Shown here: piece by piece, positions 7,813 to 58,798 of the stretch
How the letters are laid out: every line of letters begins with the position of its first letter
Numbering within the stretch: the stretch's first letter is position 1
Source of the DNA: Alphaproteobacteria bacterium
Lineage (GTDB): Bacteria; Pseudomonadota; Alphaproteobacteria; CAAHEQ01; UBA3637
DNA length: 64,000 nt
Reading direction: 5' to 3'
Assembly: GCA_015062385.1 (NCBI GenBank)
Contig: SUUT01000002.1
Coordinates: 72,229-136,228 of the forward strand
Position numbers and translations under genes: made by a program
Notes under the pieces: model-generated
What the model saw: the letters and a program-made list of their open reading frames with translations, nothing else
Database searches by the model: none
What the model was told of the DNA's origin: nothing

Positions 7813-8015
7813 TTTTTTCTCCTTTCAGCCATAAAAGAGTATAAGAAGACATACAGATAAAATCAAGTATTCTTTTTATGGGGATTTACAAACATTTTTA
7901 TTGTTGCTTTTTGAATGATATAGAAACATGATGCTTTCAGTTGTTTCGGACTTTTTTTGTTTTTTGCATTTGTAGGGCTTTTTTATTCCAACAACTTGAG
8001 TCCTTGTTGCTCTAT

Positions 8016-8056
8016 CGTCACCCCGTACTCCGATACGGGGTCTTGTTGCGATAATG
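8016..8056 (-). repeat. Single degenerate CGTC-type REP-like palindrome related to the 199-bp repeat unit
   Basis: Minus strand reads cattatcgcaacaagaccccgtatcggagtacggggtgacg, versus repeat unit cattatcgtgacgagactccgtgtcggggcacggagtgacg. Confidence 0.7.
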
Positions 8057-8362
8057 GCAGTACATATTCTCAAAAAAAATAAATAAAAAATAGGGAAAAG
8101 AAAAAGTGAACAACAGGAAAAGGGGCATAAACGAACGTATAACGATAATAAAGGAGTACGGGGAGGGGATAAGGATAAGGAAAAAGAGGGTATTTAGAGT
8201 AAAAATAAACGAAAAAGAGAGGTAAAAAAACAGCAGGGGATAAACGAGAAGAAAAATACCTGTAAAAAATCGTATAAAATATTGAAAAGAAAGGAAAAAA
8301 GACTTGATTTTTTTGAAGAAAAAGGGTAAATTGAGGTGTAACCAAAAATAAATGGAGGAAAA

Positions 8363-8731
8363 ATGAAGAAAATATTGTTAGTAATGGCTCTTTCAATGGT
8401 GTTGCCAAGTGTGGCTTTGGCTGCTTGTGAGGGGGGCGAAGAAATTACCGGAAAAAACGGTCAAAAATACTGTGTTAGTAATCAAACGATGAATTGGTGG
8501 AGTGCGTTTGCATGGTGTAAAGCAAATGGTCTTCATTTGGCAACGTTAGATGAAGCATGTAATAACCAAGCTTGGTCAGGTGGTTGTCCAAATATAAATG
8601 TAGGTATAAATAAATGGGCATGGACGGCAATCGCATCGGGGGACAGTGCCGCCTATGCCGTTAATCTTCTCCATCGTGGTAATGTGTCCACCTACGCACG
8701 CACCGACAACTACTACGCCTTATGTTTATAA
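8363..8731 (+). CDS. DGR target protein: small secreted C-type-lectin-fold protein with C-terminal variable region
   Basis: Sec signal MKKILLVMALSMVLPSVALA; CLec-like MNWWSAFAWCKANGLHLA...WAWT...YALCL; 3' end is the VR matching the TR. Confidence 0.92.
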   Translation: MKKILLVMALSMVLPSVALAACEGGEEITGKNGQKYCVSNQTMNWWSAFAWCKANGLHLATLDEACNNQAWSGGCPNINVGINKWAWTAIASGDSAAYAVNLLHRGNVSTYARTDNYYALCL

Positions 8732-8744
8732 CCCCGCTTTTAAA
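8644..8744 (+). repeat. DGR variable repeat (VR) plus IMH
   Basis: Aligns to the reverse complement of 11240-11337. 14 substitutions, all at TR adenines, plus one 3-nt insertion. Ends in TAACCCCGCTTTTAAA (IMH) versus TAACCCCGCCTTTAAA in TR (IMH*). Confidence 0.96.
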
Positions 8745-8793: not shown

Positions 8794-8972
8794 GTCCCTT
8801 TTATTAAAAAAAAGGGACAGGCAACAAAAGCCGACTCTCCCCACACGGGGACCGTGTGGGGAAAAAAATAAAAGCAAGGTATTTTGAAAATTTATGACAA
8901 GACGACGGATTTTAATTTTATCAACAAACATCTTTATATATTCCTCAATGACAGCAGGTATTTTATACCTAC

Positions 8973-9753
8973 CGTCATACTGAACTTGTTTCAGATTTGC
9001 AACGGGGGGGATAAATCTTTACATTTACGTCATGCCGGATTCAGTCCGGCATCTCGGGAAGAAGTGGCAGGAATGATGAGCCATTATCGTGACGCGACTC
9101 CGTGTCGGGGCACGGAGTGATGGTAGGACTAAAAATCGGAACAAGCCCGAAGTGACGTTTTCACTATCCATCGTCATGCTGAACTTGTTTCAGATTCGCA
9201 GCGGGGGGGATAAATCTTTACGTTTACGTCATGCCGGATTCAGTCCGGCATCTCGGGAAGAAGCGGCAGGAACGCTGTGCTATTATCGTGACGAGACTCC
9301 GTGTCGGGGCACGGAGTGACGGTAGGACTAAAAACCGGAACAAGCCCTGAGTGACGTTTTCACTATCCATCGTCATACTGAACTTGTTTCAGATTCGCAT
9401 CGGGGGGGGATAAATCTTTACATTTACGTCATGCCGGATTCAGTCCGGCATCTCGGGAAGAAGTGGCAGGAACGCTGTGCTATTATCATGACGAGACTCC
9501 GTGTCGGGGCACGGAGTGACGGTAGGACTAAAAATCGGAACAAGCCCGAAGTGACGTTTTCACTATCCATCGTCATACTGAACTTGTTTCAGATTCGCAA
9601 CGGGGGGGATAAATCTTTACATTTACGTCATGCCGGATTCAGTCCGGCATCTCGGGAAGAAGTGGCAGGAATGATGAGCCATTATCGTGACGAGACTCCG
9701 TGTCGGGGCACGGAGTGACGGTAGGACTAAAAATCGGAACAAGCCCGAAGTGA
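8973..9753. repeat. Tandem array of about 4 copies of a 199-200 bp unit built from CGTC-type REP-like palindromes
   Basis: Units start at 8973, 9172, 9371 and 9571. Each has CGTCAT(A/G)CTGAACTTGTTTCAG, CGTCATGCCGGATTCAGTCCGGCATCTC and GACTCCGTGTCGGGGCACGGAGTGA. Confidence 0.95.
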
Positions 9754-9911
9754 TGGTGGAACTAAAAAGGGTATGAAGTGACGAAAAAAATAAAAACAAG
9801 GCAGGGAGTGACGGAGCAGATAAAAAGGGTTTGGGATGATGAAGAAGATAAAAAGGACGCAGGGATGTTACTTAAAAATATAGATGATTGTCACGGCAAA
9901 GGTAAAAAGAA

Positions 9912-11225
9912 TCAATATTTATTTGCAGTGTGACAGATATTTTTTTTATTGTGTCGATTTTTTCTTTTGATATCGGGACGAGCAAAAGAAGTTAAGCGTT
10001 GTTGTTTTTTGAGTTTCAGCTTGTTATTCAGGATAGGGTCAACGGAAACTTTTGTAAAGTTCATATCTGCCGAAAATACTTCCCGAATTTCGGAACAAAG
10101 CATATTCCATGCCTTTAATTTAACTCGCCAACAATTAAAATGACGCAAAATGCCAAAATAAGAATTAAGTGTTGAGCGTGTTTTTTCAATTAATATTGTT
10201 TTGCTTTTGTGTGACATTGGTTGTTTCCATTCCTGATTTAAACGTTCTATTCTTTGGTAAAAAGTTTTTTGTAATCGTTTTGACGGATAGATACGATTGG
10301 GCAAAATATAGGCTCCGGTAAAGGAAAATCCTTTGGCATAATGTTGCAATGACACTTTTTTCGGATGAATGGTTAAATGCAATTCGGATTTTAAATAGTC
10401 AGTGATTTGTTGTTTGACCCGATGTAAAAAATCTTTATCCGGATGAATAAAAATCAAGTCATCAACATAACGGGCATAAAACAAATTCGCATCTAATGAG
10501 GTGGCATAATAATCAAAATCGTTCAAATAAAAATTGGCAAAAATCTGACTGGTTAAGTTGCCGATAGGCAATCCGCAATTTGTATTGGCAAAAAACAAAC
10601 TTTTTGATTGTGGTAATTCCGCCCAGTCTTCTATCGGTGTTTGATAATTGCAGTGACGAATAGGGTTGTCCGATAAAATTTCTTTCAAAAGATATAAAAT
10701 CTGTTCTTTGTTTGTGTGATGATAGTGCGTATTGACCAGCGTTTGGATTTTATTGAACAAAATGGTTTTATCAATGTGAAAGAAAAATCCCTGAATATCC
10801 AACCGCAATACAAAACAATCTTGTGTAAAATGGTTCGAACACGCTTGAAGCATTTCATAAACGGAACGAATGCCAAATAGTGTTCCTTTTCCGGCCCGAC
10901 AACTGTAAGAATGTTCGTAAAAAACATTTTCAAACAATCGAAGCAGTTTACCGATAACCAAATGATGAACAATCCTGTCCCGAAAGTTTGCCGCAAACAC
11001 TTCTCTCAGGACAGGATGCCTGACAATAAAGGCATTAGACGGGGCAATATGATATGTATGTGCCGTGATGTCTTGCCATAAGTTAATCAGATTTTGCTCA
11101 TAGTTTGCTTCAAACTTTAATGCTGCCATGCTGTGACGTTTATGTCTTCTGCAATCAAAATAGGCTTGAAACACTTCTTCCAAAGTAATATCCGATAATA
11201 AGTGATAAAAAGTAAGTTGTTCCAT
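9912..11225 (-). CDS. DGR reverse transcriptase
   Basis: REVFAANFRDRIVHH, LDIQGFF, GLPIGNLTSQ (the SQ variant typical of DGR RTs), RYVDD; adjacent TR and avd. Confidence 0.96.
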   Translation of the reverse strand: MEQLTFYHLLSDITLEEVFQAYFDCRRHKRHSMAALKFEANYEQNLINLWQDITAHTYHIAPSNAFIVRHPVLREVFAANFRDRIVHHLVIGKLLRLFENVFYEHSYSCRAGKGTLFGIRSVYEMLQACSNHFTQDCFVLRLDIQGFFFHIDKTILFNKIQTLVNTHYHHTNKEQILYLLKEILSDNPIRHCNYQTPIEDWAELPQSKSLFFANTNCGLPIGNLTSQIFANFYLNDFDYYATSLDANLFYARYVDDLIFIHPDKDFLHRVKQQITDYLKSELHLTIHPKKVSLQHYAKGFSFTGAYILPNRIYPSKRLQKTFYQRIERLNQEWKQPMSHKSKTILIEKTRSTLNSYFGILRHFNCWRVKLKAWNMLCSEIREVFSADMNFTKVSVDPILNNKLKLKKQQRLTSFARPDIKRKNRHNKKNICHTANKY

Positions 11226-11239
11226 AGTGACTTTTTTAT

Positions 11240-11337
11240 TTTAAAGGCGGGGTTATAAACATAAGGCGTTGTTGTTGTTGGTTCGTGTGTTTGTGTTCAC
11301 ATTACCATTATTGAGATTAACGTTATAGGCGGCACTG
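11240..11337 (-). ncRNA. DGR template repeat (TR)
   Basis: AAC/AAT-rich (in VR frame SAAYNVNLNNGNVNTNTRTNNNNALCL*), located between avd and RT, homologous to VR 8644-8744. Confidence 0.96.
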
Positions 11338-11458
11338 CACCGCTATAAAGTTGGAGGATTACCGCCTCCACGGGTAGTCAACACTGTTTTATATACCAAA
11401 CAAACGTTCGGTGATTGACCCTTTTAAAATAAAACACTTGCTCGCTCAAGGTAACGAT

Positions 11459-11845
11459 TTATTCATTCTCCTTGATTCCGGCACTTGTTTTTAACTGTTG
11501 CTTTCTCCTTTCCGCTTTGTACCAAGCACTTGCTTGGGAGGTAATTGATTCCATTGTTTGTGCCAAATAGGCTTGTGCCCGACAACTGATTAAGTTTAAA
11601 TCTGCACATAGTCTTAGGCAAACCCGTGTCTTTTCCAGTTGAAACATAAAGGTGTTGATGTGTTCCGATTTGTCTTCGCTGTGGTTTGCTCGTGATATTA
11701 TGGCACATAGTTCTAAGGCACTGTCGTTAAGCGTGTTCCCCAATGTATATTTATGTTCCCGTGAAAATTTTGTCGTGTACTGATGTATATCCCGTATCAG
11801 TTGATACGTTGCTATGTATATCGGTAATTTATCACTGCGTGTCAT
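11459..11845 (-). CDS. avd: DGR accessory variability determinant (Avd, four-helix bundle)
   Basis: LPIYIATYQL...KFSREHKYTLG...RVCLRLCADLNLIS...QASAW. Start set at ATG 11845, with a GGAG RBS overlapping the end of the upstream pilin-like gene. Confidence 0.9.
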   Translation of the reverse strand: MTRSDKLPIYIATYQLIRDIHQYTTKFSREHKYTLGNTLNDSALELCAIISRANHSEDKSEHINTFMFQLEKTRVCLRLCADLNLISCRAQAYLAQTMESITSQASAWYKAERRKQQLKTSAGIKENE

Positions 11846-11853
11846 AAAATGGT

Positions 11854-13635
11854 TTACTCCACAACAGGGCATTCGCCCAAATCATTTAAGTTAAAGTACA
11901 TATCCAAACAAACGCCCCACAACGGATTACTGCCTTTGGCATCAACCGTATCGGTACAGCCTTTTGATTTAAAGTTCATATAACAATATTGTTTTCGAGG
12001 GCAATCTGTTTGAACGGATAACATTTTTTCCAAATCAGGCATTTCCATTTCACAAGACGGATTTTTATTATTCATATCGGCACAAGCCCCGTAAATAATA
12101 CCCGTATAATTAGCACCGGCTGCTCCGGTACATGTTTCTGTTGTGAATGACAGATAACAATATTGACCTTTGGGACAATCGGATATGGATTGTACCATTT
12201 CTTGTGCATCGGGTAAATTAAGAGAGCAGGATGGATTTTTGTTATCCATAAAGGCACATACTCCATGAAGTGTTCCTGTGTGGTTTGCACCGGCGGCAGA
12301 GGTACACGTATTGTTTTTAAATGACAAATAACAATACTGACCATTCGGACACCCTTTGCTTTCTTTGACCATTTCTCCCGAAGATGGCATATCCGTTGAG
12401 CAAGAGGGATTTTTATTGTTCATATCGGAACAAACACCATAAATCGTTCCCGTATGGTTTGCTCCGGCAGAACTCGTACAAGAATCGTTTTTAAATGACA
12501 GATAGCAATATTGTCCGCTAGGGCATCCGTTAGATTGTGTCACCATATCCCCCTCAGAAGCCTTTTGAACGGCACAGGAAGCGTTTTTATTGTTCATATC
12601 GGTACAAACCCCATAAATGGTCTCTGCCCCCGTTGCAGACACGCTGGAACTGCAATCTGACGTTTTAAATGATAAATAACAATATTGTCCACTGGGGCAA
12701 GCAGTTCCGATAGTCATATTAAGTGTTTCTCCGTCTGATGCCAATCCGTTTGTATAAGAGCAATTTGTAGTCAATGTCATTGTATCTGATGAAACAGTAA
12801 AAGCACAATTTGTATGCATACCCATTGTTTCATCCGAAACTTCATAAGAACAATTTGTACTTAACGTCATTGTTTCATCGGATATCCGATAGGAACAGCC
12901 GGCTTTTCCTTTCATTTCGGCATTTTCAAAGCTGTATTTGCAAAAACCATCCGATTCGGGACATTCATCAACATTTTGTCCGCAAATTGTATTGCCTCCA
13001 CAGCACCAACGCCGTTCTCCGGACCAGCATTCACTTTCATTTTCGGCATCACAAATCGGATTGCAAAATGTGCGGGATTCGTTGGGTTCTTTTCCGACAG
13101 GACATTCATAACAAGTCCCCGTATTGGCATTGCAGTATCCGCCTTCCGATTCAACACATTCTTCGTTTGTTTCACAATCTTTACCGGGGGCACGTGTGCC
13201 GTTAAAGGCAAAAATAATATCCATTGGTTCCGGTGTACAACTTGTTACGGCACCGATCGTTGTTTCTTCATGTTCAATTTCTTGATAAAAAGATAATTGT
13301 TCATTGTTGCCCAGTTGCATAATCAGTTGGCACATTTCATTATCTATATTTTCAACAAGAACAAAGGTATCGCCGTCTTCATCTTTTCCGGTAAACATGT
13401 TGTATCCGCATTTGGGGGTAAAATCAACCGGTGTCCAATTGGTTTCTGCCTCGTTAACCCCTTGTGCATTGGCATAGGCGATATGTGCTTCTTGGATTAA
13501 TAAATTAGCGGTATATTTTTTCATCGCATAGCGATATCCTAATATCCCGCAGACAGATAAAATACCGATAATGGCTAAAACCCCTAGAATTTCTACCATA
13601 CTTCGTCCGGCTTGTGCGTTCTTGTATTTTTTCAT
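11854..13635 (-). CDS. Type IV pilin-like N-terminus, Cys-rich repeat surface protein (first gene of the DGR operon)
   Basis: Prepilin-like AG|RSMVEILGVLAIIGILSV; five ~58-aa CPxGQYCYLSF...YGVCxDMNNKNPSC repeats. Confidence 0.85.
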   Translation of the reverse strand: MKKYKNAQAGRSMVEILGVLAIIGILSVCGILGYRYAMKKYTANLLIQEAHIAYANAQGVNEAETNWTPVDFTPKCGYNMFTGKDEDGDTFVLVENIDNEMCQLIMQLGNNEQLSFYQEIEHEETTIGAVTSCTPEPMDIIFAFNGTRAPGKDCETNEECVESEGGYCNANTGTCYECPVGKEPNESRTFCNPICDAENESECWSGERRWCCGGNTICGQNVDECPESDGFCKYSFENAEMKGKAGCSYRISDETMTLSTNCSYEVSDETMGMHTNCAFTVSSDTMTLTTNCSYTNGLASDGETLNMTIGTACPSGQYCYLSFKTSDCSSSVSATGAETIYGVCTDMNNKNASCAVQKASEGDMVTQSNGCPSGQYCYLSFKNDSCTSSAGANHTGTIYGVCSDMNNKNPSCSTDMPSSGEMVKESKGCPNGQYCYLSFKNNTCTSAAGANHTGTLHGVCAFMDNKNPSCSLNLPDAQEMVQSISDCPKGQYCYLSFTTETCTGAAGANYTGIIYGACADMNNKNPSCEMEMPDLEKMLSVQTDCPRKQYCYMNFKSKGCTDTVDAKGSNPLWGVCLDMYFNLNDLGECPVVE

Positions 13636-32887: not shown

Positions 32888-33354
32888 AAAAGAGCCTGTT
32901 TTTAGAATTTTTCTTTTGTTATAAATTAGTTATTTGTATATTTACCAAAGACTGATAACGATTTAGAGCGAAATTTTCAATCAGAATTAACCTTTGGCAT
33001 ACTTGCTGTTTTTAAAATTCACAAAATGAATGAAGGTAAATTTCTAAAGCAGAGAAAACAGATAAAAAATATTCATTCAGATTTACGAAATGTTAAGCAT
33101 TAGAAAAAAATCTCAACACTGGGAAATTAAGAGAAAACCAGAGAAAAATCCTGTTTGAAAGTTATAAATATAATTTAATATTTGTTTCTCTATGTGTCTA
33201 CACTTATTTTTTTTAGTAAAGATATTTTACACAAATAATGTTTTTAAATATCTTATAAAAAATAATTTTATTTTTAATTTCAAAATTTAATAAAATAAAG
33301 TTTTTGAAAGACGTTATAATTATGAGATTTATTTTGATTTAATTTTTACCCATT

Positions 33355-33382
33355 ACTATACATAATATAAATTATGCGACAA
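33355..33382 (-). other. Putative dif site (XerC/XerD chromosome dimer resolution)
   Basis: Minus strand TTGTCGCATAA-TTTATA-TTATGTATAGT; 20/28 identical to E. coli dif GGTGCGCATAA-TGTATA-TTATGTTAAAT. Lies in a 1.3-kb gene-free region between convergent genes. Confidence 0.8.
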
Positions 33383-34175
33383 ATTACTACATAAAAAAAC
33401 AGATAAAAACATTAAAAATCATAATATTGCAAAAAATGTGGATAACTCTGTTTATAAATTAATTTTTAAAATCATCAGGTTTGTTTTCTAAATATTTTTG
33501 AAATATTTTTTATTCAAAACAATTTGAATGAATGAAAATTTTATTAAATCAATCCTTAAATCAGGTTTCTTTTATTAGAAATTTACATGGTATTTTTTTC
33601 TCTGACTTATTTTAAAGACTTATTATTTGTATTCTTTTACACACATTTTAGTAATTTTTAGATATTATAAAGTTGAACTAAAATTTAATATATCTTCAAT
33701 CATCAATTTACCGCTTCTTGTTTTTGTTTTCTGTATTTTAATTTGATAATACTACCTCATAAATTGATGGTATTGTAAATTCATATAAGAATGGTGAGAT
33801 TCTCGGCAATGTTTTGTTTGAAAATCCGAATGACTAATGACTTATGTCTATTCCCTTCTCTAAATAAATATTATTATAAATGAACTGAAAGGATTAAGAG
33901 GGTAGCTTTATAGTATTTATTGATAAAAATATTCGGTATTTCCAGAAATTGCCCTGCAATTAGCTTCAAGAAGCATTTCAAAATTCTTACAAAATATCAT
34001 ATTTTCTTTTTGTTTTCATATATTAAATTGATTTTTTAGAAATTTTCAGATAAAATCTAAAAGAAATTTTCAGTATAAAACTAATATCAGGACGTTTGTG
34101 TTCCCCAAAATCTTTATTTTATAATATACGAGGAGGAGAGTTTGTGCCCCTCCTCTTTGTCATTTATAAAATTAT

Positions 34176-36389
34176 TTAATCTATAACACAAAGTGCAGGA
34201 TAGGAATTTGTCGTATAAGTACCATCTATATTGCCGAATTCCAGTCCTACCTGATATACTTCGCAAGATGTATATACTTTATCAAGCCAGTAAAAATCAT
34301 CTCCAACTTTACCAAAGGCTTCCCATAATCCGGTTACAATTTTTGATATATTATCCTTAACATATGCGTTTGATCCAATTGCTTTATAATGACAATATCC
34401 CCATCGACCTAACCCGTCCATGCAATGCATATCATTTGAACCGGCAACTCGTCCGCCAATAGCTTCACAAAAACGATTAGCACTCCACCAAGTCATTTCT
34501 AAATTTGGAGTTCCATAAAAAGTTTTTGTTCCCGTCACTTCTCTGCCATAACCGTCATAGTGGGTCCAGTTGATAGTTGCTTGAATTGCATCATCTTTTG
34601 CTACACGACAAATTCCCGTATCAATAAAAGGTCCTTCAAATTCTATACCACAAGCATATCCCTTCTTTTGATAGCAATAATATCCGTATTTTCCGTCTTT
34701 GTTACAATCGGCATTTGTTGTGCAATATTCAACACATTCTTTTCCATTCCAACGTGTTCCGTCCAAGCAAGGTACACACACATTCATTTTTAAATCACAG
34801 GTTGGTTTTGTTTCATCTATACAATGAGTATTATTTAAGCATTCGGAACACAAACCCGTATCGGCACAATATAAACCCATATCACAATCATCATTTGTTT
34901 CACAAGATGAACAAGTTCCGTTTTTACAAATATTTTTACCAATTATTTCAGTGCAATCATCATGAGATAAACACAATACTTGTTCTTCAGGTTCAATCCC
35001 TTCAATAATCGCATCATCAACACATAAAGCATAATATCCCTCTTCCAGAATTTCTCCATCTATATTTCCGTATTCCAAACCGATACCATATCCGGAACAC
35101 TCATCAATAATATTAGAAAACCAATACCAACCACCATTTAATGCGGTTTTTAATTTTGTTACAACTGTTGAAATATTACCATCTTGCCAAGCATTTGATC
35201 CGATATATTTTTTATGACAATAGCCCCAACTTCCCACATTATCTGCACATTGAAAATCTGTTGTGGTCACTTGTCTTTTTCCAATGCTTTTACAAAAACG
35301 ATTGGCACTATGCCAAGTCATTTCTAACTCCGGAACGGCATAAAAATTTGTTGTTCCATATGTTATTAAGCCTTTTGAGTCTGTTTTGTTCCATTTAACA
35401 GTTACTTTTTTCATATCATCTTCTGCAAAATGGCATTCTCCTTTATCTTCACGAGGTCCATAAAATTCATATCCGGAACAAGCATATCCTAGTGCATTAT
35501 AACAGTAATAACCTGTTCTGCCGTTTTTGTTACACTCCTCATTTGTTTTGCAAGGTAAAACACACCGTTTTCCATTCCATTTTTCTCCATTCGGACAAGG
35601 TTCACACGTACTTGTTTTTGTATCGCAATAAGGTTTAGAGGCATCTTTACAATCTGCATAACTTTGACACTCTACACATCCTTCCGCTGTTTCAATAGGT
35701 GTTTGACGTGGACATTGACATATGTTATCAATCCATTCTTTGGGCGGATAACACCACTCACAATTGTCCCCAAATTCATATTCATGCCGACAAACACATC
35801 CGTATGTCCCATCATCTTTTTGTCGCCATGCCATTTTGTCCGGACAAGATTGTGGTTCACTGCTTGGATTGTCATCCGGCATATCCGAACCACCGCTTCC
35901 GCCATTTCCACCACTACTTCCCCCATCAAAGTGAGAACCGGATTCAACAGTCGGAGTTGCATTAAAGGAAAACACCATATTTGTTTTGCTGTTTGGGTTT
36001 CCGCACATTCTTGTTAAAATAGAAATACCCATCTCATTTAAAATGCTTTCTCTTTGCAGGAGTTTTTCACAAACTTTATAAACCACTTTAAATGCTGTTA
36101 CTTGATAATTACCATCAACGAGCTTGACCATAGATTTTTTATCATCCGGTGTATATTCAGGTAGGGCAGATTTTAAAAACCGATTAACCTCCAATGCATG
36201 AGAAGCCCGAGAATCCGTTTGAGCCAATGTTTTAGCCTTGCCAAGAACATCTTGAATTTTACCGGATTGATAGGCTGTTAAGGCATATTGATACATACCG
36301 ACACCGGCAACGGACAAAACGCCGATAATTGCCAATACACCTAGCATTTCTACCATACTCCGACCGGTTTCATTGATTTTGATTTGCAT
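34176..36389 (-). CDS. Type IV pilin-like N-terminus, Cys-rich stalk, two tandem C-type-lectin-like domains
   Basis: TG|RSMVEMLGVLAIIGVLSV; duplicated module with EMTW(H/W)SANRFC...Y(Y/P)ALCV resembling the DGR target. Confidence 0.85.
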   Translation of the reverse strand: MQIKINETGRSMVEMLGVLAIIGVLSVAGVGMYQYALTAYQSGKIQDVLGKAKTLAQTDSRASHALEVNRFLKSALPEYTPDDKKSMVKLVDGNYQVTAFKVVYKVCEKLLQRESILNEMGISILTRMCGNPNSKTNMVFSFNATPTVESGSHFDGGSSGGNGGSGGSDMPDDNPSSEPQSCPDKMAWRQKDDGTYGCVCRHEYEFGDNCEWCYPPKEWIDNICQCPRQTPIETAEGCVECQSYADCKDASKPYCDTKTSTCEPCPNGEKWNGKRCVLPCKTNEECNKNGRTGYYCYNALGYACSGYEFYGPREDKGECHFAEDDMKKVTVKWNKTDSKGLITYGTTNFYAVPELEMTWHSANRFCKSIGKRQVTTTDFQCADNVGSWGYCHKKYIGSNAWQDGNISTVVTKLKTALNGGWYWFSNIIDECSGYGIGLEYGNIDGEILEEGYYALCVDDAIIEGIEPEEQVLCLSHDDCTEIIGKNICKNGTCSSCETNDDCDMGLYCADTGLCSECLNNTHCIDETKPTCDLKMNVCVPCLDGTRWNGKECVEYCTTNADCNKDGKYGYYCYQKKGYACGIEFEGPFIDTGICRVAKDDAIQATINWTHYDGYGREVTGTKTFYGTPNLEMTWWSANRFCEAIGGRVAGSNDMHCMDGLGRWGYCHYKAIGSNAYVKDNISKIVTGLWEAFGKVGDDFYWLDKVYTSCEVYQVGLEFGNIDGTYTTNSYPALCVID

Positions 36390-36427
36390 GTTTTCTCCTC
36401 ACTTCATAAAGTTGCATTTATAAAGTG

Positions 36428-36586: not shown

Positions 36587-36670
36587 GATAGATATTCTTA
36601 CATTAAGATATTACTTCTTTATAGATATTCCCCACCAAACCGGGGGTTGTCTGTAAGGCATTAATACAAC

Positions 36671-36696
36671 ACCAGCGACTATAAAAAGTCGCTGGT
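36671..36696. terminator. Hairpin terminator after trxA
   Basis: ACCAGCGACT-ataaaa-AGTCGCTGGT. Confidence 0.7.
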
Positions 36697-36728
36697 GGGT
36701 ATAAGAAAATTTTATCAGGAAAAACAAA

Positions 36729-57376: not shown

Positions 57377-58762
57377 CTACTCTGTTAAGCAATAATCCAC
57401 AACCTTATGAAGTTTAAAATTCATACTGCCGCAGTTATTATCACATTCATTATCCCAAAATTGAATGGTTATATCTGCCAAGCCATTAAATGTAAAATAT
57501 TTAATCGGTTGATTTCTTAATGCATTTGTTACTTGTTTAGTTGTTCCAACATTATATCCCTCACCATTTCCCACAAAATCAGAATCTTTATTAATAATAT
57601 ATCCTAAATTTTTTGTACCCTCAAATACATATGTTGCAAAACCGACCCGCTTCGTCTTACAATTATAATAATGGTATCCATCAACCCATTCAAAATAATA
57701 TGTCCCTTTTAGTTTACCTAAGTTATTTGTTGTAATACGGCACTCCCAAACAGAACTATTAATTCCGGTTGAAGCAATATCCATTTCAACCACATCTTCT
57801 GTTTTACAAACACATTCGCCATTTTGATTGGGTTCTAATTCATATTTTGATGTATCACAATAACACACACATGTTTCCCCATCCTGAATCTGTCCCGTTG
57901 GACAAGATGTTGCACACGGCGTACACATTTTTGTTATTGCATCCCAATGTATTTTATCTGTCGGACAAGATTCACACATATTGTTTGTTCCGCATACCGG
58001 AGTCGGATTAGCACAATCATCATTCGTTAAGCATTCCACACACTTTTCATCTTTCCAAATCGGAGAGAAATCCGGACAGCGACACATTACTTCATCTTCA
58101 AACCATTCTTTGGGAGGATAACATCGTTCACAATTATCCCCGAACTCATATTCATGCCGACAAATACATCCGTATGTACCGTCTTCTTTTTGTCGCCATA
58201 CCATTTTATCGGGGCAGGTTTCCGGTTCAATATTTGGATTATCTATATCCGGCAGATTCGAACTCCCGCTTCCGCTATTTCCGCCCCCATTTCCTCCGCC
58301 AAAGTGAGAACCGGATTCAAATGTCGGTGTTGCATCAAAGGAAAATACCATGCTTGTTTTATTGTTTGGGTTTCCACACGTTTTTGTTAAAATTGAAATA
58401 CCCATATCATTCAATATACCTTCCTTTTGAAAGAGCTTTTCACAAATTTTATGTGTCATCTTAAATGCCGTTACCTGATAATTGCCGTCAACCAATTTAA
58501 CCATAGACTTTTTATCATCCGGCGTATATTCGGAAAGTGCTGACTTAATAAATCGATTGACTTCTAAGGCATGTGAAGCCCGAGAATCTGTTTGTGCCAA
58601 TGTTTTGGCTTTTCCGAGAACATCCTGCACTTTGCCGGCTTGATAAGCCGTTAACGCATATTGATAGGTTGCAACACCCCCAACGGATAATACCCCGATA
58701 ATTGCCAGAACCCCCAGCATTTCCACCATTGAACGACCAAGTTCATTTATTTTAGTTTGCAT
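57377..58762 (-). CDS. Type IV pilin-like N-terminus, Cys-rich stalk, distinct C-terminal domain
   Basis: LG|RSMVEMLGVLAIIGVLSVGG; first ~220 aa highly similar to the 34176-36389 protein, C-terminus unrelated. Confidence 0.85.
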   Translation of the reverse strand: MQTKINELGRSMVEMLGVLAIIGVLSVGGVATYQYALTAYQAGKVQDVLGKAKTLAQTDSRASHALEVNRFIKSALSEYTPDDKKSMVKLVDGNYQVTAFKMTHKICEKLFQKEGILNDMGISILTKTCGNPNNKTSMVFSFDATPTFESGSHFGGGNGGGNSGSGSSNLPDIDNPNIEPETCPDKMVWRQKEDGTYGCICRHEYEFGDNCERCYPPKEWFEDEVMCRCPDFSPIWKDEKCVECLTNDDCANPTPVCGTNNMCESCPTDKIHWDAITKMCTPCATSCPTGQIQDGETCVCYCDTSKYELEPNQNGECVCKTEDVVEMDIASTGINSSVWECRITTNNLGKLKGTYYFEWVDGYHYYNCKTKRVGFATYVFEGTKNLGYIINKDSDFVGNGEGYNVGTTKQVTNALRNQPIKYFTFNGLADITIQFWDNECDNNCGSMNFKLHKVVDYCLTE

Positions 58763-58798
58763 ATTTTCCTCACATCATAAAGTTGCATTTATGAAATG

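Follow-up and report, generated by a model that had tools for sequence, protein, structure and literature searches.

In a 64,000-nucleotide window of an alphaproteobacterial genome (the whole stretch of contig SUUT01000002.1 that was analysed), we identified a gene for a 737-amino-acid (aa) protein, P0001, that combines a prepilin-type N-terminus with two tandem modules, each ending in a compact C-type lectin-like domain (CTLD). P0001 is probably a modular type-IV-like pilin with two static CTLD heads. Both domains are related to the secreted target of a complete diversity-generating retroelement (DGR) located about 26 kb upstream of the P0001 gene, and the pilin copies are fixed in this genome. 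The window's own genome is referred to as G000 and contigs by C-numbers; the window lies on C9.

Architecture of the pilin-like protein

The gene and the parts of its product are as follows.

34176..36389, reverse strand: P0001 gene, stop codon included, from the list of open reading frames (ORFs) and the translation
35865..36389, reverse strand: prepilin-type N-terminus and putative pilin module, residues 1-175; motif read from the sequence
35010..35414, reverse strand: CTLD A (dA), residues 326-460, at the end of module A; domain i-E 2.7e-4 with a hidden Markov model (HMM) of short targets
34179..34589, reverse strand: CTLD B (dB), residues 601-737, C-terminal; short-target HMM i-E 1.5e-6, and an AlphaFold2 model
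35019..35090, reverse strand: 24 codons of dA (residues 434-457, YGIGLEYGNIDGEILEEGYYALCV) equivalent to the variable repeat (VR) of the DGR; fixed
34185..34256, reverse strand: 24 codons of dB (residues 712-735, YQVGLEFGNIDGTYTTNSYPALCV) equivalent to the VR; fixed

An earlier note on this DNA, made from the letters alone, had placed the protein at 34176..35620, an interval that lies within the ORF and takes in only its C-terminal two thirds. The two 24-residue stretches that it quoted are those at residues 434-457 and 712-735.

P0001 starts with MQIKINETG/RSMVEMLGVLAIIGVLSVAG (the slash follows Gly9), a prepilin-type motif with Glu at +5. Checked as a class III signal, the site reads ETG/RSMVEMLGVLAIIGVLSVAGV, with Gly at -1 and Arg, not Phe or Met, at +1. 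The ESM Atlas clusters nearest to residues 1-175 carry PilS, Bundlin and N_methyl annotations (score 0.92), and the structure of this module gives TM-scores of 0.57/0.58 to the PilS cluster; both serve as leads only. A Gly/Ser-rich linker and Cys-rich stretches separate the pilin module from the two tandem modules, which are identical at 110 of 225 positions (49%, E 3e-73). Judging from this similarity, the two units of Cys-rich stalk and compact CTLD appear to have arisen by internal duplication. The domains themselves span about 115-135 aa, and dA and dB are 47% identical. In public data the counterpart P0002 also has 737 aa and is 99% identical to P0001; this near-identical protein was the sole match of a fast sequence search with residues 590-737. 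Apart from a sub-threshold N_methyl match, Pfam and NCBIfam scans of P0001 returned nothing, and NCBIfam likewise had no match for the DGR target or for the 593-aa pilin-like protein of the DGR locus.

Homology of the pilin domains to the DGR target

The DGR of the window comprises the following elements.

8363..8731, forward strand: 122-aa secreted DGR target, a compact CTLD; VR at about 8635-8744
9912..11225, reverse strand: DGR reverse transcriptase (RT); Pfam RVT_1, E 5e-17
11240..11346 (approximate), reverse strand: template repeat (TR), an inverted repeat with the VR; the genome's only TR
11459..11872, reverse strand: Avd accessory protein; Pfam bAvd, E 1.9e-11
11854..13635, reverse strand: 593-aa pilin-like protein with a prepilin motif and no CTLD

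The translation of the TR ends with YNVNLNNGNVNTNTRTNNNNALCL followed by a stop codon. Set against this peptide without gaps, the dA stretch is identical at 7 of 24 positions and the dB stretch at 10 of 24. This identity is weak by itself, and it is the similarity of the whole domains, which far exceeds chance, that carries the claim. BLASTP aligned the target to P0001 with 29 of 111 identical residues (E 3e-5) and a second segment with 15 of 36 (E 2e-4). An HMM built from seven short paralogues of the target recovered P0001 among the 10,732 ORFs of the genome at E 4.2e-9, and every ORF that it matched bears a CTLD. Comparison of a 55-sequence target family with a 39-sequence pilin-type family by hhalign gave a probability of 98.6% (E 1.1e-15, 91 columns), in a register that is unbroken from the xNWWSA motif through the terminal ALC. 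Relative to the target, the pilin-type domain has an insertion of about 25 residues in mid-domain, and its C-terminal stretch stays in register.

Predicted structures point the same way. The AlphaFold2 models of dB and the target reached predicted local distance difference test (pLDDT) values of 93.9 and 86.8, respectively. All 50 VIA-align matches listed for dB are CTLDs, the best being 1egg_A (Z 11.4, root-mean-square deviation (rmsd) 2.2 Å, 97 residues). The target matched 3g8k_A (Z 10.8) and the same chains as dB, with Z scores for target and dB of 10.7/10.6 for 8oks_B, 10.6/10.2 for 4qkg_A and 9.9/11.4 for 1egg_A; a Foldseek search with the target was also significant (E 1.2e-4). Both models are thus predicted to adopt the CTLD fold over most of the domain. 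The Cys of helix 1 (WxxAxxFC) and that of the last strand (ALC) are both present in dA, dB and the target, and across the 39 aligned pilin-type sequences C134 never varies and C41 is at least 90% conserved; the two would pair in a disulfide. Pfam Lectin_C (PF00059) gave no match for P0001 or the target at E <= 1. The DGR variable proteins Mtd, from a Bordetella phage, and TvpA, from Treponema denticola, have the C-type lectin (CLec) fold; neither is among the structure matches shown, which is no evidence that the folds differ.

Sequence profiles and models together support the assignment of the pilin CTLDs and the DGR target to one domain family with one fold. The earlier note had claimed that a pair of lectin-like domains in P0001 is homologous to the target and in exact register with the TR; it had named HMM and structure comparison as the check and different folds or a non-significant similarity as the result that would overturn it. 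The similarity is significant and the predicted fold is the same, and the claim stands.

The pilin domains are fixed

The local VR served as a positive control. Of the 110 nt compared, 22 differ between VR and TR: 15 at TR adenines, 3 through an indel of a single codon and 4 of other kinds. The indel gives the local VR one codon more than the TR (3 extra nt after TTAAT), and adenine-type differences flank it on both sides; the strain variant P0003 likewise has 25 residues in the VR stretch of the target, and no gap is needed to align the VR pieces of C24 and C10 to the TR. The pilin stretches therefore match the TR in length better than the neighbouring VR does. Between the target and P0003, 1 differing site lies outside residues 99-120 and 17 lie inside.

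The stretches of dA and dB behave differently. Local alignment of the TR to their DNA gave background scores of 23-28 (gapped), compared with 137.5 for the real VR, and mismatches fall at TR adenines in only 3 of 15 and 3 of 25 cases. The 3' ends of both domains had no repeat partner in the genome by blastn-short. No initiation of mutagenic homing (IMH) site was found, as the 3' end of the TR, which is common to the VRs of C9, C6 and C10, has no counterpart after dA or dB; dA runs on into coding sequence, and dB is followed by the stop codon and a terminator hairpin. The frequency of C at third codon positions is 0.11 and 0.15 in the two stretches and 0.118 in the whole gene, whereas the live VR is full of NNC codons. 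Glu and Gln occur in the pilin stretches at positions where the TR encodes Asn. These residues are not producible by adenine mutagenesis of AAY codons, which counts against former targeting. Compatibility with NNY codons at the TR-Asn positions was also considered as a test of former targeting and was dropped as uninformative in this AT-rich genome.

Strain comparison agrees with this picture. None of the 7 substitutions between P0001 and P0002 falls in the VR-equivalent stretches, and the C-terminus of the fragment P0065 is identical to that of P0001. The P0001 gene was present in 20 of 24 listed metagenome runs, which represent 13 studies (feces, gut and sheep metagenomes). Contigs from four runs of four studies, covering 34100-35700 or beyond, differ from the window at 6/1880, 7/1887, 4/1691 and 2+1+0 positions. 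No difference is listed within either stretch, with 95 further, less supported differences falling outside the listing. Over the N-terminal part (35717-36400) contigs of many paralogues pile up, and this part is unreadable as variation of the P0001 gene.

Protein search and PF00078 each gave a single RT in the genome, whose assembly of 45 contigs is 99.08% complete. The search for other TRs that the earlier note had called for found none. With one RT, no TR partner and no strain change in the stretches, the conclusion that the pilin CTLDs are fixed in this genome is well supported. The earlier note had read the missing IMH and the many non-adenine differences as excluding these stretches from the current targets of this TR, and the alignment scores, ordinary codon usage and near-invariance between strains bear it out.

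The TR does have matches elsewhere in G000, at C6:5343-5449, the end of C24 and the start of C10, so the DGR has remote targets with at least two further VRs. Look-alikes of decaying VRs without an IMH were found on C40 and C11, where 14 of 21 and 15 of 24 mismatches, respectively, are at TR adenines. Several contigs start or end in or beside VRs (C24:21998-22368, C10:1-58, C1:151-591 and C26:96-527), and a run of N lies in the VR at C6:5343-5449. Hypervariable DNA thus seems to break the assembly, making the target count a lower bound.

Relatives in the family and beyond

Searched against 1.84 billion representatives, a profile of dA and dB matched 57 proteins at E <= 1e-3, of which at least 21 carry a prepilin motif. 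Pfam was run on 15 of the 57: six weak matches to the profile carry Lectin_C (E 1.9e-9 to 6.2e-4), and the other nine have no family. Among 41 genomes (G000 and 40 related ones), 11 hold CTLD matches, all from the same taxonomic family, with as many as 49 in G010, 36 in G014, 23 in G019 and 14 in G023, mostly in open frames of 400-600 aa.

In the congener G019, Avd, a TR and an RT that is 46% identical to that of G000 come after the gene for a 447-aa protein in which a CTLD is fused to a pilin. VR and TR show 87% identity across 104 nt, and on reading the alignment each of the 14 mismatches falls on an adenine of the TR. The pilin-fused CTLD of G019 is the target of a canonical DGR cassette, and in this genome the broader idea of a pilin head diversified by a DGR is borne out. 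The G019 TR has no other full-length match, which leaves the remaining G019 copies fixed, like P0001.

In G023, 11 pilin-CTLD paralogues (L044-L054; on C4, C13, C1, C33, C36, C43, C31, C17 and C38) have 3' ends that are NNC-variable between invariant bases, and 5 of the 11 have a downstream flank in common. From these sequences the set looks like a multi-target DGR. Neither BLAST nor a sequence profile of the ends found a TR for them in the assembly; the twelfth match of the profile is another pilin-CTLD gene. The sole RT-like gene found in G023 lies in a phage-like region (C4:30000-60000, about 23400-27500 of L037+L038) and is 27-39% identical to the G000 RT. A 119-nt repeat upstream of it has an 82% identical copy inside a downstream 652-aa ORF, and both are unrelated to the pilin-CTLD genes.

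The RT type of G000 occurs in 12 of the 61 family genomes searched, its own included. It was not found with this query in G010, G014 or G015, all rich in pilin-CTLD copies, of which G014 and G015 are 76-77% complete. Among 10 RT loci, the nearby VR-bearing ORF is short and without a pilin motif in G012, G004, G074 and G052, and pilin-fused in G019 only; in the other five (G058, G073, G008, G062 and G042) no VR was found in the DNA stretch examined, and several of these stretches stop at contig ends.

In a maximum-likelihood tree of 42 domains, dA and dB are sisters (100/97) among pilin-type domains, and the clade of short targets (99/99) stands apart from them; labelled targets occur in three places. 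The tree lacks a root and several of its branches are long, so we claim no direction. A search for loci related to that of P0001 returned one, in a metagenome-assembled genome (MAG; Alphaproteobacteria bacterium isolate RGIG7750), where a 419-aa protein (L043:365-1624) is 69% identical to residues 1-268 of P0001. Its C-terminal part is unrelated to P0001 and lacks a CTLD, indicating that the same pilin module carries different heads.

Pilin machinery and the prepilin repertoire

The genome is predicted to encode what type IV pilins require, a prepilin peptidase (Peptidase_A24 at C3:29636-29962, 55.3 bits, above the cut-off) and an assembly ATPase (three T2SSE matches above the cut-off, the best with 229 bits at C8:27273-28496). 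It also holds 96 ORFs with a prepilin-type motif, G(R/K/Q)S(M/L)xE, near the N-terminus. Together these account for 52,224 aa, or 8.6% of the 1.81-Mb genome; 70 of the 96 have at least 300 aa, and the longest has 3,841 aa (C12:46533-58112). The window contains a third such frame besides P0001 and the DGR-locus pilin:

57380-58774 (G000 C9:129608-131002), reverse strand: prepilin-motif ORF of 453 aa from the motif, assigned by the motif

CTLDs are represented in G000 by nine short secreted genes and five pilin-CTLD fusions. Two of the fusions (C9:53012-54967 and C7:40972-42951) are 44-47% identical to P0001 over about 570 aligned positions (residues 2-516); they have the pilin and stalk region in common with it, and their CTLDs differ from those of P0001.

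The P0001 gene is monocistronic and stands between two terminator-like hairpins:

34130..34155, reverse strand: terminator-like hairpin, 21 nt past the P0001 stop codon; consensus scan
36670-36697, reverse strand: second hairpin, between the P0001 gene and the upstream thioredoxin gene; consensus scan

Its neighbours are housekeeping genes, including those for a metallo-beta-lactamase-fold protein, thioredoxin, TsaD and MltA. Downstream of the gene, about 1.2 kb of very AT-rich DNA (32888-34130) contains no ORF that reaches 60 aa and has no Rfam match.

Interpretation and alternatives

In the mechanism that we propose, the prepilin peptidase would cleave P0001 after Gly9, and the type IV filament machinery of the genome would insert the pilin module into a filament. 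The position there would probably be the tip, given the bulky C-terminus, and in the animal gut the two CTLDs may bind ligands as static heads. The last 24 residues of each CTLD sit where the TR rewrites its targets and are hard-wired in P0001. The suggestion of the earlier note that the DGR-diversified domain family also serves as fixed pilin tip domains holds for the domains being fixed and fused to a pilin-like protein; the tip position is proposed by analogy with modular pilins.

Several observations weigh against this interpretation. The Pfam N_methyl match of P0001 stays below the cut-off (E 0.38, 10.8 bits against 21.2), and the pilin fold of the N-terminal module is suggested by the resemblance in the ESM Atlas, which is a lead only. 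No pilus genes flank the P0001 gene, and it is doubtful that all 96 prepilin-motif ORFs polymerise into filaments. A Foldseek search with dB found no match at E <= 0.001 (best E 4e-3). Classical Ca-dependent C-type lectins have the sugar and Ca motifs EPN or QPD and WND, and none of these tripeptides was seen on reading the translations of dA and dB. With the sugar motifs missing, "lectin" names the fold and not a known ligand, and sugar binding does not follow from the fold. Contigs drop rare variants, so low-level diversity of the stretches within populations may exist.

The display step is where the main alternative departs. The prepilin-type N-terminus might serve for export or anchoring only, which would make P0001 a surface or secreted CTLD adhesin outside any pilus; we regard this as fairly unlikely. 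Archaeal surface sugar-binding proteins carry class III signal peptides. The 96 prepilin-motif ORFs, with their many large members, are far above the need of any known pilus, and the isolation of the P0001 gene as a single transcription unit among housekeeping genes also fits such a role. Against it, genes for a prepilin peptidase and for ATPases like PilB/GspE are present, the ESM Atlas places residues 1-175 near type IVb pilins, and large modular pilins are known on filaments, as described in the partial text of PMC8179133.

Two further alternatives concern the history and present state of the stretches, which the earlier note had proposed to be either captured former targets or targets of another TR. 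That dA and dB were once DGR targets, became uncoupled from a TR and have drifted since is improbable. Their register and frame residues (Y..L..GN...ALC) equal those of the TR, the decaying VRs on C40 and C11 illustrate how such a state could look, pilin-fused CTLDs are live targets in G019, and NNC-type variation is found in the 11 paralogues of G023. Against it, dA and dB retain no DNA similarity to the TR, C at third positions is at background, Glu and Gln stand at TR-Asn positions, and GLE(Y/F)GNIDG is common to dA and dB, which points to a part unvaried since the duplication. In the tree, the domains closest to them (G019_L007 and G015_L027, 96/86) have no target label, with the TR comparison covering the G019 copy only. 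The capture of former targets thus finds no support in the ordinary AT-rich codons, the Glu and Gln residues or the position among pilin-type domains. It is highly improbable that a second TR or DGR, absent from the draft assembly, is targeting the stretches at present. The 45-contig assembly does break at VRs (C24 end, C10 start, N run on C6), and the 11 VR-like ends of G023 have no TR in their assembly either. However, the G000 assembly is nearly complete with a single RVT_1 match, no second RT or TR was found in it, the codon usage of the stretches is unlike that of a VR, and they are unchanged in P0002, P0065 and four metagenome studies, compared with 17 VR differences between two strains in the true target.

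Static CTLD heads on a modular type-IV-like pilin could also be one part of a wider arrangement. The small-genome family of gut Alphaproteobacteria studied here may have a two-tier adhesin system on type IV filaments. In the first tier, a DGR would keep evolving a minimal CTLD, either secreted free and docked on a dedicated pilin with repeats or, as in G019, fused to a pilin. In the second, useful variants would be kept as hard-wired heads in a very large germline set of modular pilins, with the 96 prepilin-motif ORFs of G000 and up to 49 pilin-CTLD copies in a congener. P0001 would be an archived member of the second tier. We consider this extension quite unlikely as it stands.

The free target and the 593-aa pilin

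The 122-aa target might dock on the 593-aa pilin of the DGR locus, with fused pilins representing the hard-wired version of a two-part adhesin. We hold this to be possible, if on balance unlikely. Three of the nine short CTLD genes (C24, C40 and C6) begin 8 nt past an upstream pilin open frame on the same strand, and these frames (469-545 aa) are 28-29% identical to the 593-aa pilin (E 1e-45 to 1e-58). Three more short CTLD genes lie at or near contig ends, so that their upstream neighbours are not readable. CofB and CofJ of the type IVb pili of enterotoxigenic Escherichia coli (ETEC) offer a precedent for docking, as far as the partial text of PMC6048534 describes them. Gene order by itself is weak evidence of binding; in the window, the target and pilin genes are divergent with the RT and Avd genes between them, and on C11 and C36 no pilin of this group directly adjoins the short CTLD gene.

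A complex prediction with pilin residues 40-593 and the mature target scored 0.46 (runs 0.29, 0.52 and 0.46), against 0.00 for the best of three controls, a weak result; at least 75% of contacts are common to the runs, and partner pLDDT is at least 81. Of 157 solved complexes 116 reached the mark used, as did 2 of 215 mismatched pairs, and scores of 0.60 or less include 18 of the 157 solved complexes and both passing mismatches. By this calibration a pass at 0.46 will be wrong in most cases unless the pairing was already probable, and no interface is given. The idea, raised in the earlier note, that the free target is the tip partner of the DGR-operon pilin therefore gains from the gene order at C24, C40 and C6 and little from the complex prediction.

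Relation to known systems

DGR targets with a CLec fold are well established. Like Mtd and TvpA, the 122-aa target is a CLec-type scaffold with a variable C-terminal surface that would bind ligand, and the pilin CTLDs are homologous to the target in the same register. Unlike those proteins, the pilin CTLDs have no VR, TR or IMH, and the domain of about 100 aa is nearest to classical CTLDs and to the fibre tip of Bd2740. The thin pilus of plasmid R64 has a type IVb minor pilin, PilV, whose C-terminal adhesive end is varied by a shufflon. The pilin-fused DGR target of G019 resembles it in having an adhesive end varied by a dedicated DNA-diversifying system. PilV uses site-specific recombination among fixed segments, in contrast to the retro-mutagenesis of G019, and P0001 is unvaried.

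According to the partial text of PMC8179133, modular type IV pilins with adhesive heads are established and widespread; PilB of Streptococcus sanguinis has a vWA module and PilC a lectin module. ETEC CofB, a minor pilin of type IVb in the part of PMC6048534 available, has a head of lectin type. P0001 may be like the modular pilins of S. sanguinis in a putative class III signal and small pilin module followed by a linker and bulky modules, and it may be like CofB in that its N-terminus resembles type IVb pilins, which is a lead only. Compared with the modular pilins that these excerpts describe, the heads of P0001 are two tandem compact CTLDs on Cys-rich stalks without a Pfam or NCBIfam model, and its gene is an orphan outside a pilus operon and one of 96 prepilin-motif ORFs.

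In Bacteroides, Type V pili have tip adhesins diversified by DGRs, along with small periplasmic variable proteins, and the static BovFim1C head was contrasted with the diversified BunT head (bioRxiv 10.1101/2024.11.15.621889, partial text). The present case is similar in that one head family takes three forms: static in P0001, free in the 122-aa target and as a pilin-fused target in G019. It differs, within what that excerpt covers, in its type IV prepilin N-terminus in place of Type V lipoprotein pilins, its alphaproteobacterial host and another CTLD family. The C-terminal domain of Bdellovibrio bacteriovorus Bd2740 is the tip of a chimeric fibre protein (PDB 8oks; PMC10769870, partial text) and, like the pilin CTLDs, lies at the end of a putative surface fibre. 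Its chain 8oks_B superposes on dB (Z 10.6) with an rmsd of 2.2 Å over 95 residues and on the target (Z 10.7) with 3.3 Å over 92 residues. Sequence identity is 7-17%, and the Bd2740 carrier is, as far as that excerpt goes, a trimeric fibre with no DGR and not a pilin. A survey (PMC11661182, partial text) counts a G-type pilin domain among the rare domains that bear VRs. The literature found for DGRs with pilins or type IV pili and for lectins of type IVb minor pilins does not describe this system, and supplementary catalogues may list relatives.

What is new is an unnamed compact CTLD family without a Pfam or NCBIfam model, its triple use in one alphaproteobacterial lineage (as a free DGR target, as fixed tandem heads and, in a congener, as a DGR target fused to a type IV pilin) and the size of the prepilin-headed repertoire, which is unusually large for a 1.8-Mb genome. 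The pattern known from Bacteroides Type V pili would thereby extend to type IV-type pilins in an uncultured gut alphaproteobacterial family. Natural pairs of matched fixed and diversified heads may be used to ask which ligands these gut bacteria track.

Repeats at the DGR locus

Four tandem repeats of about 199-200 nt occupy 8966-9901, between the target and the RT gene, each with GC-rich hairpin-like segments. An Rfam scan of the window found two tRNAs only, with nothing for these repeats or for the ORF-free gap downstream of P0001. A 47-48-nt piece of the repeat is inverted at 8012-8059, upstream of the target. Related units are found beside other targets (C10:293-502 and C6:7687-7825) and also on C33 and C40, and repeats close to the RT are likewise found in G008 and G052.

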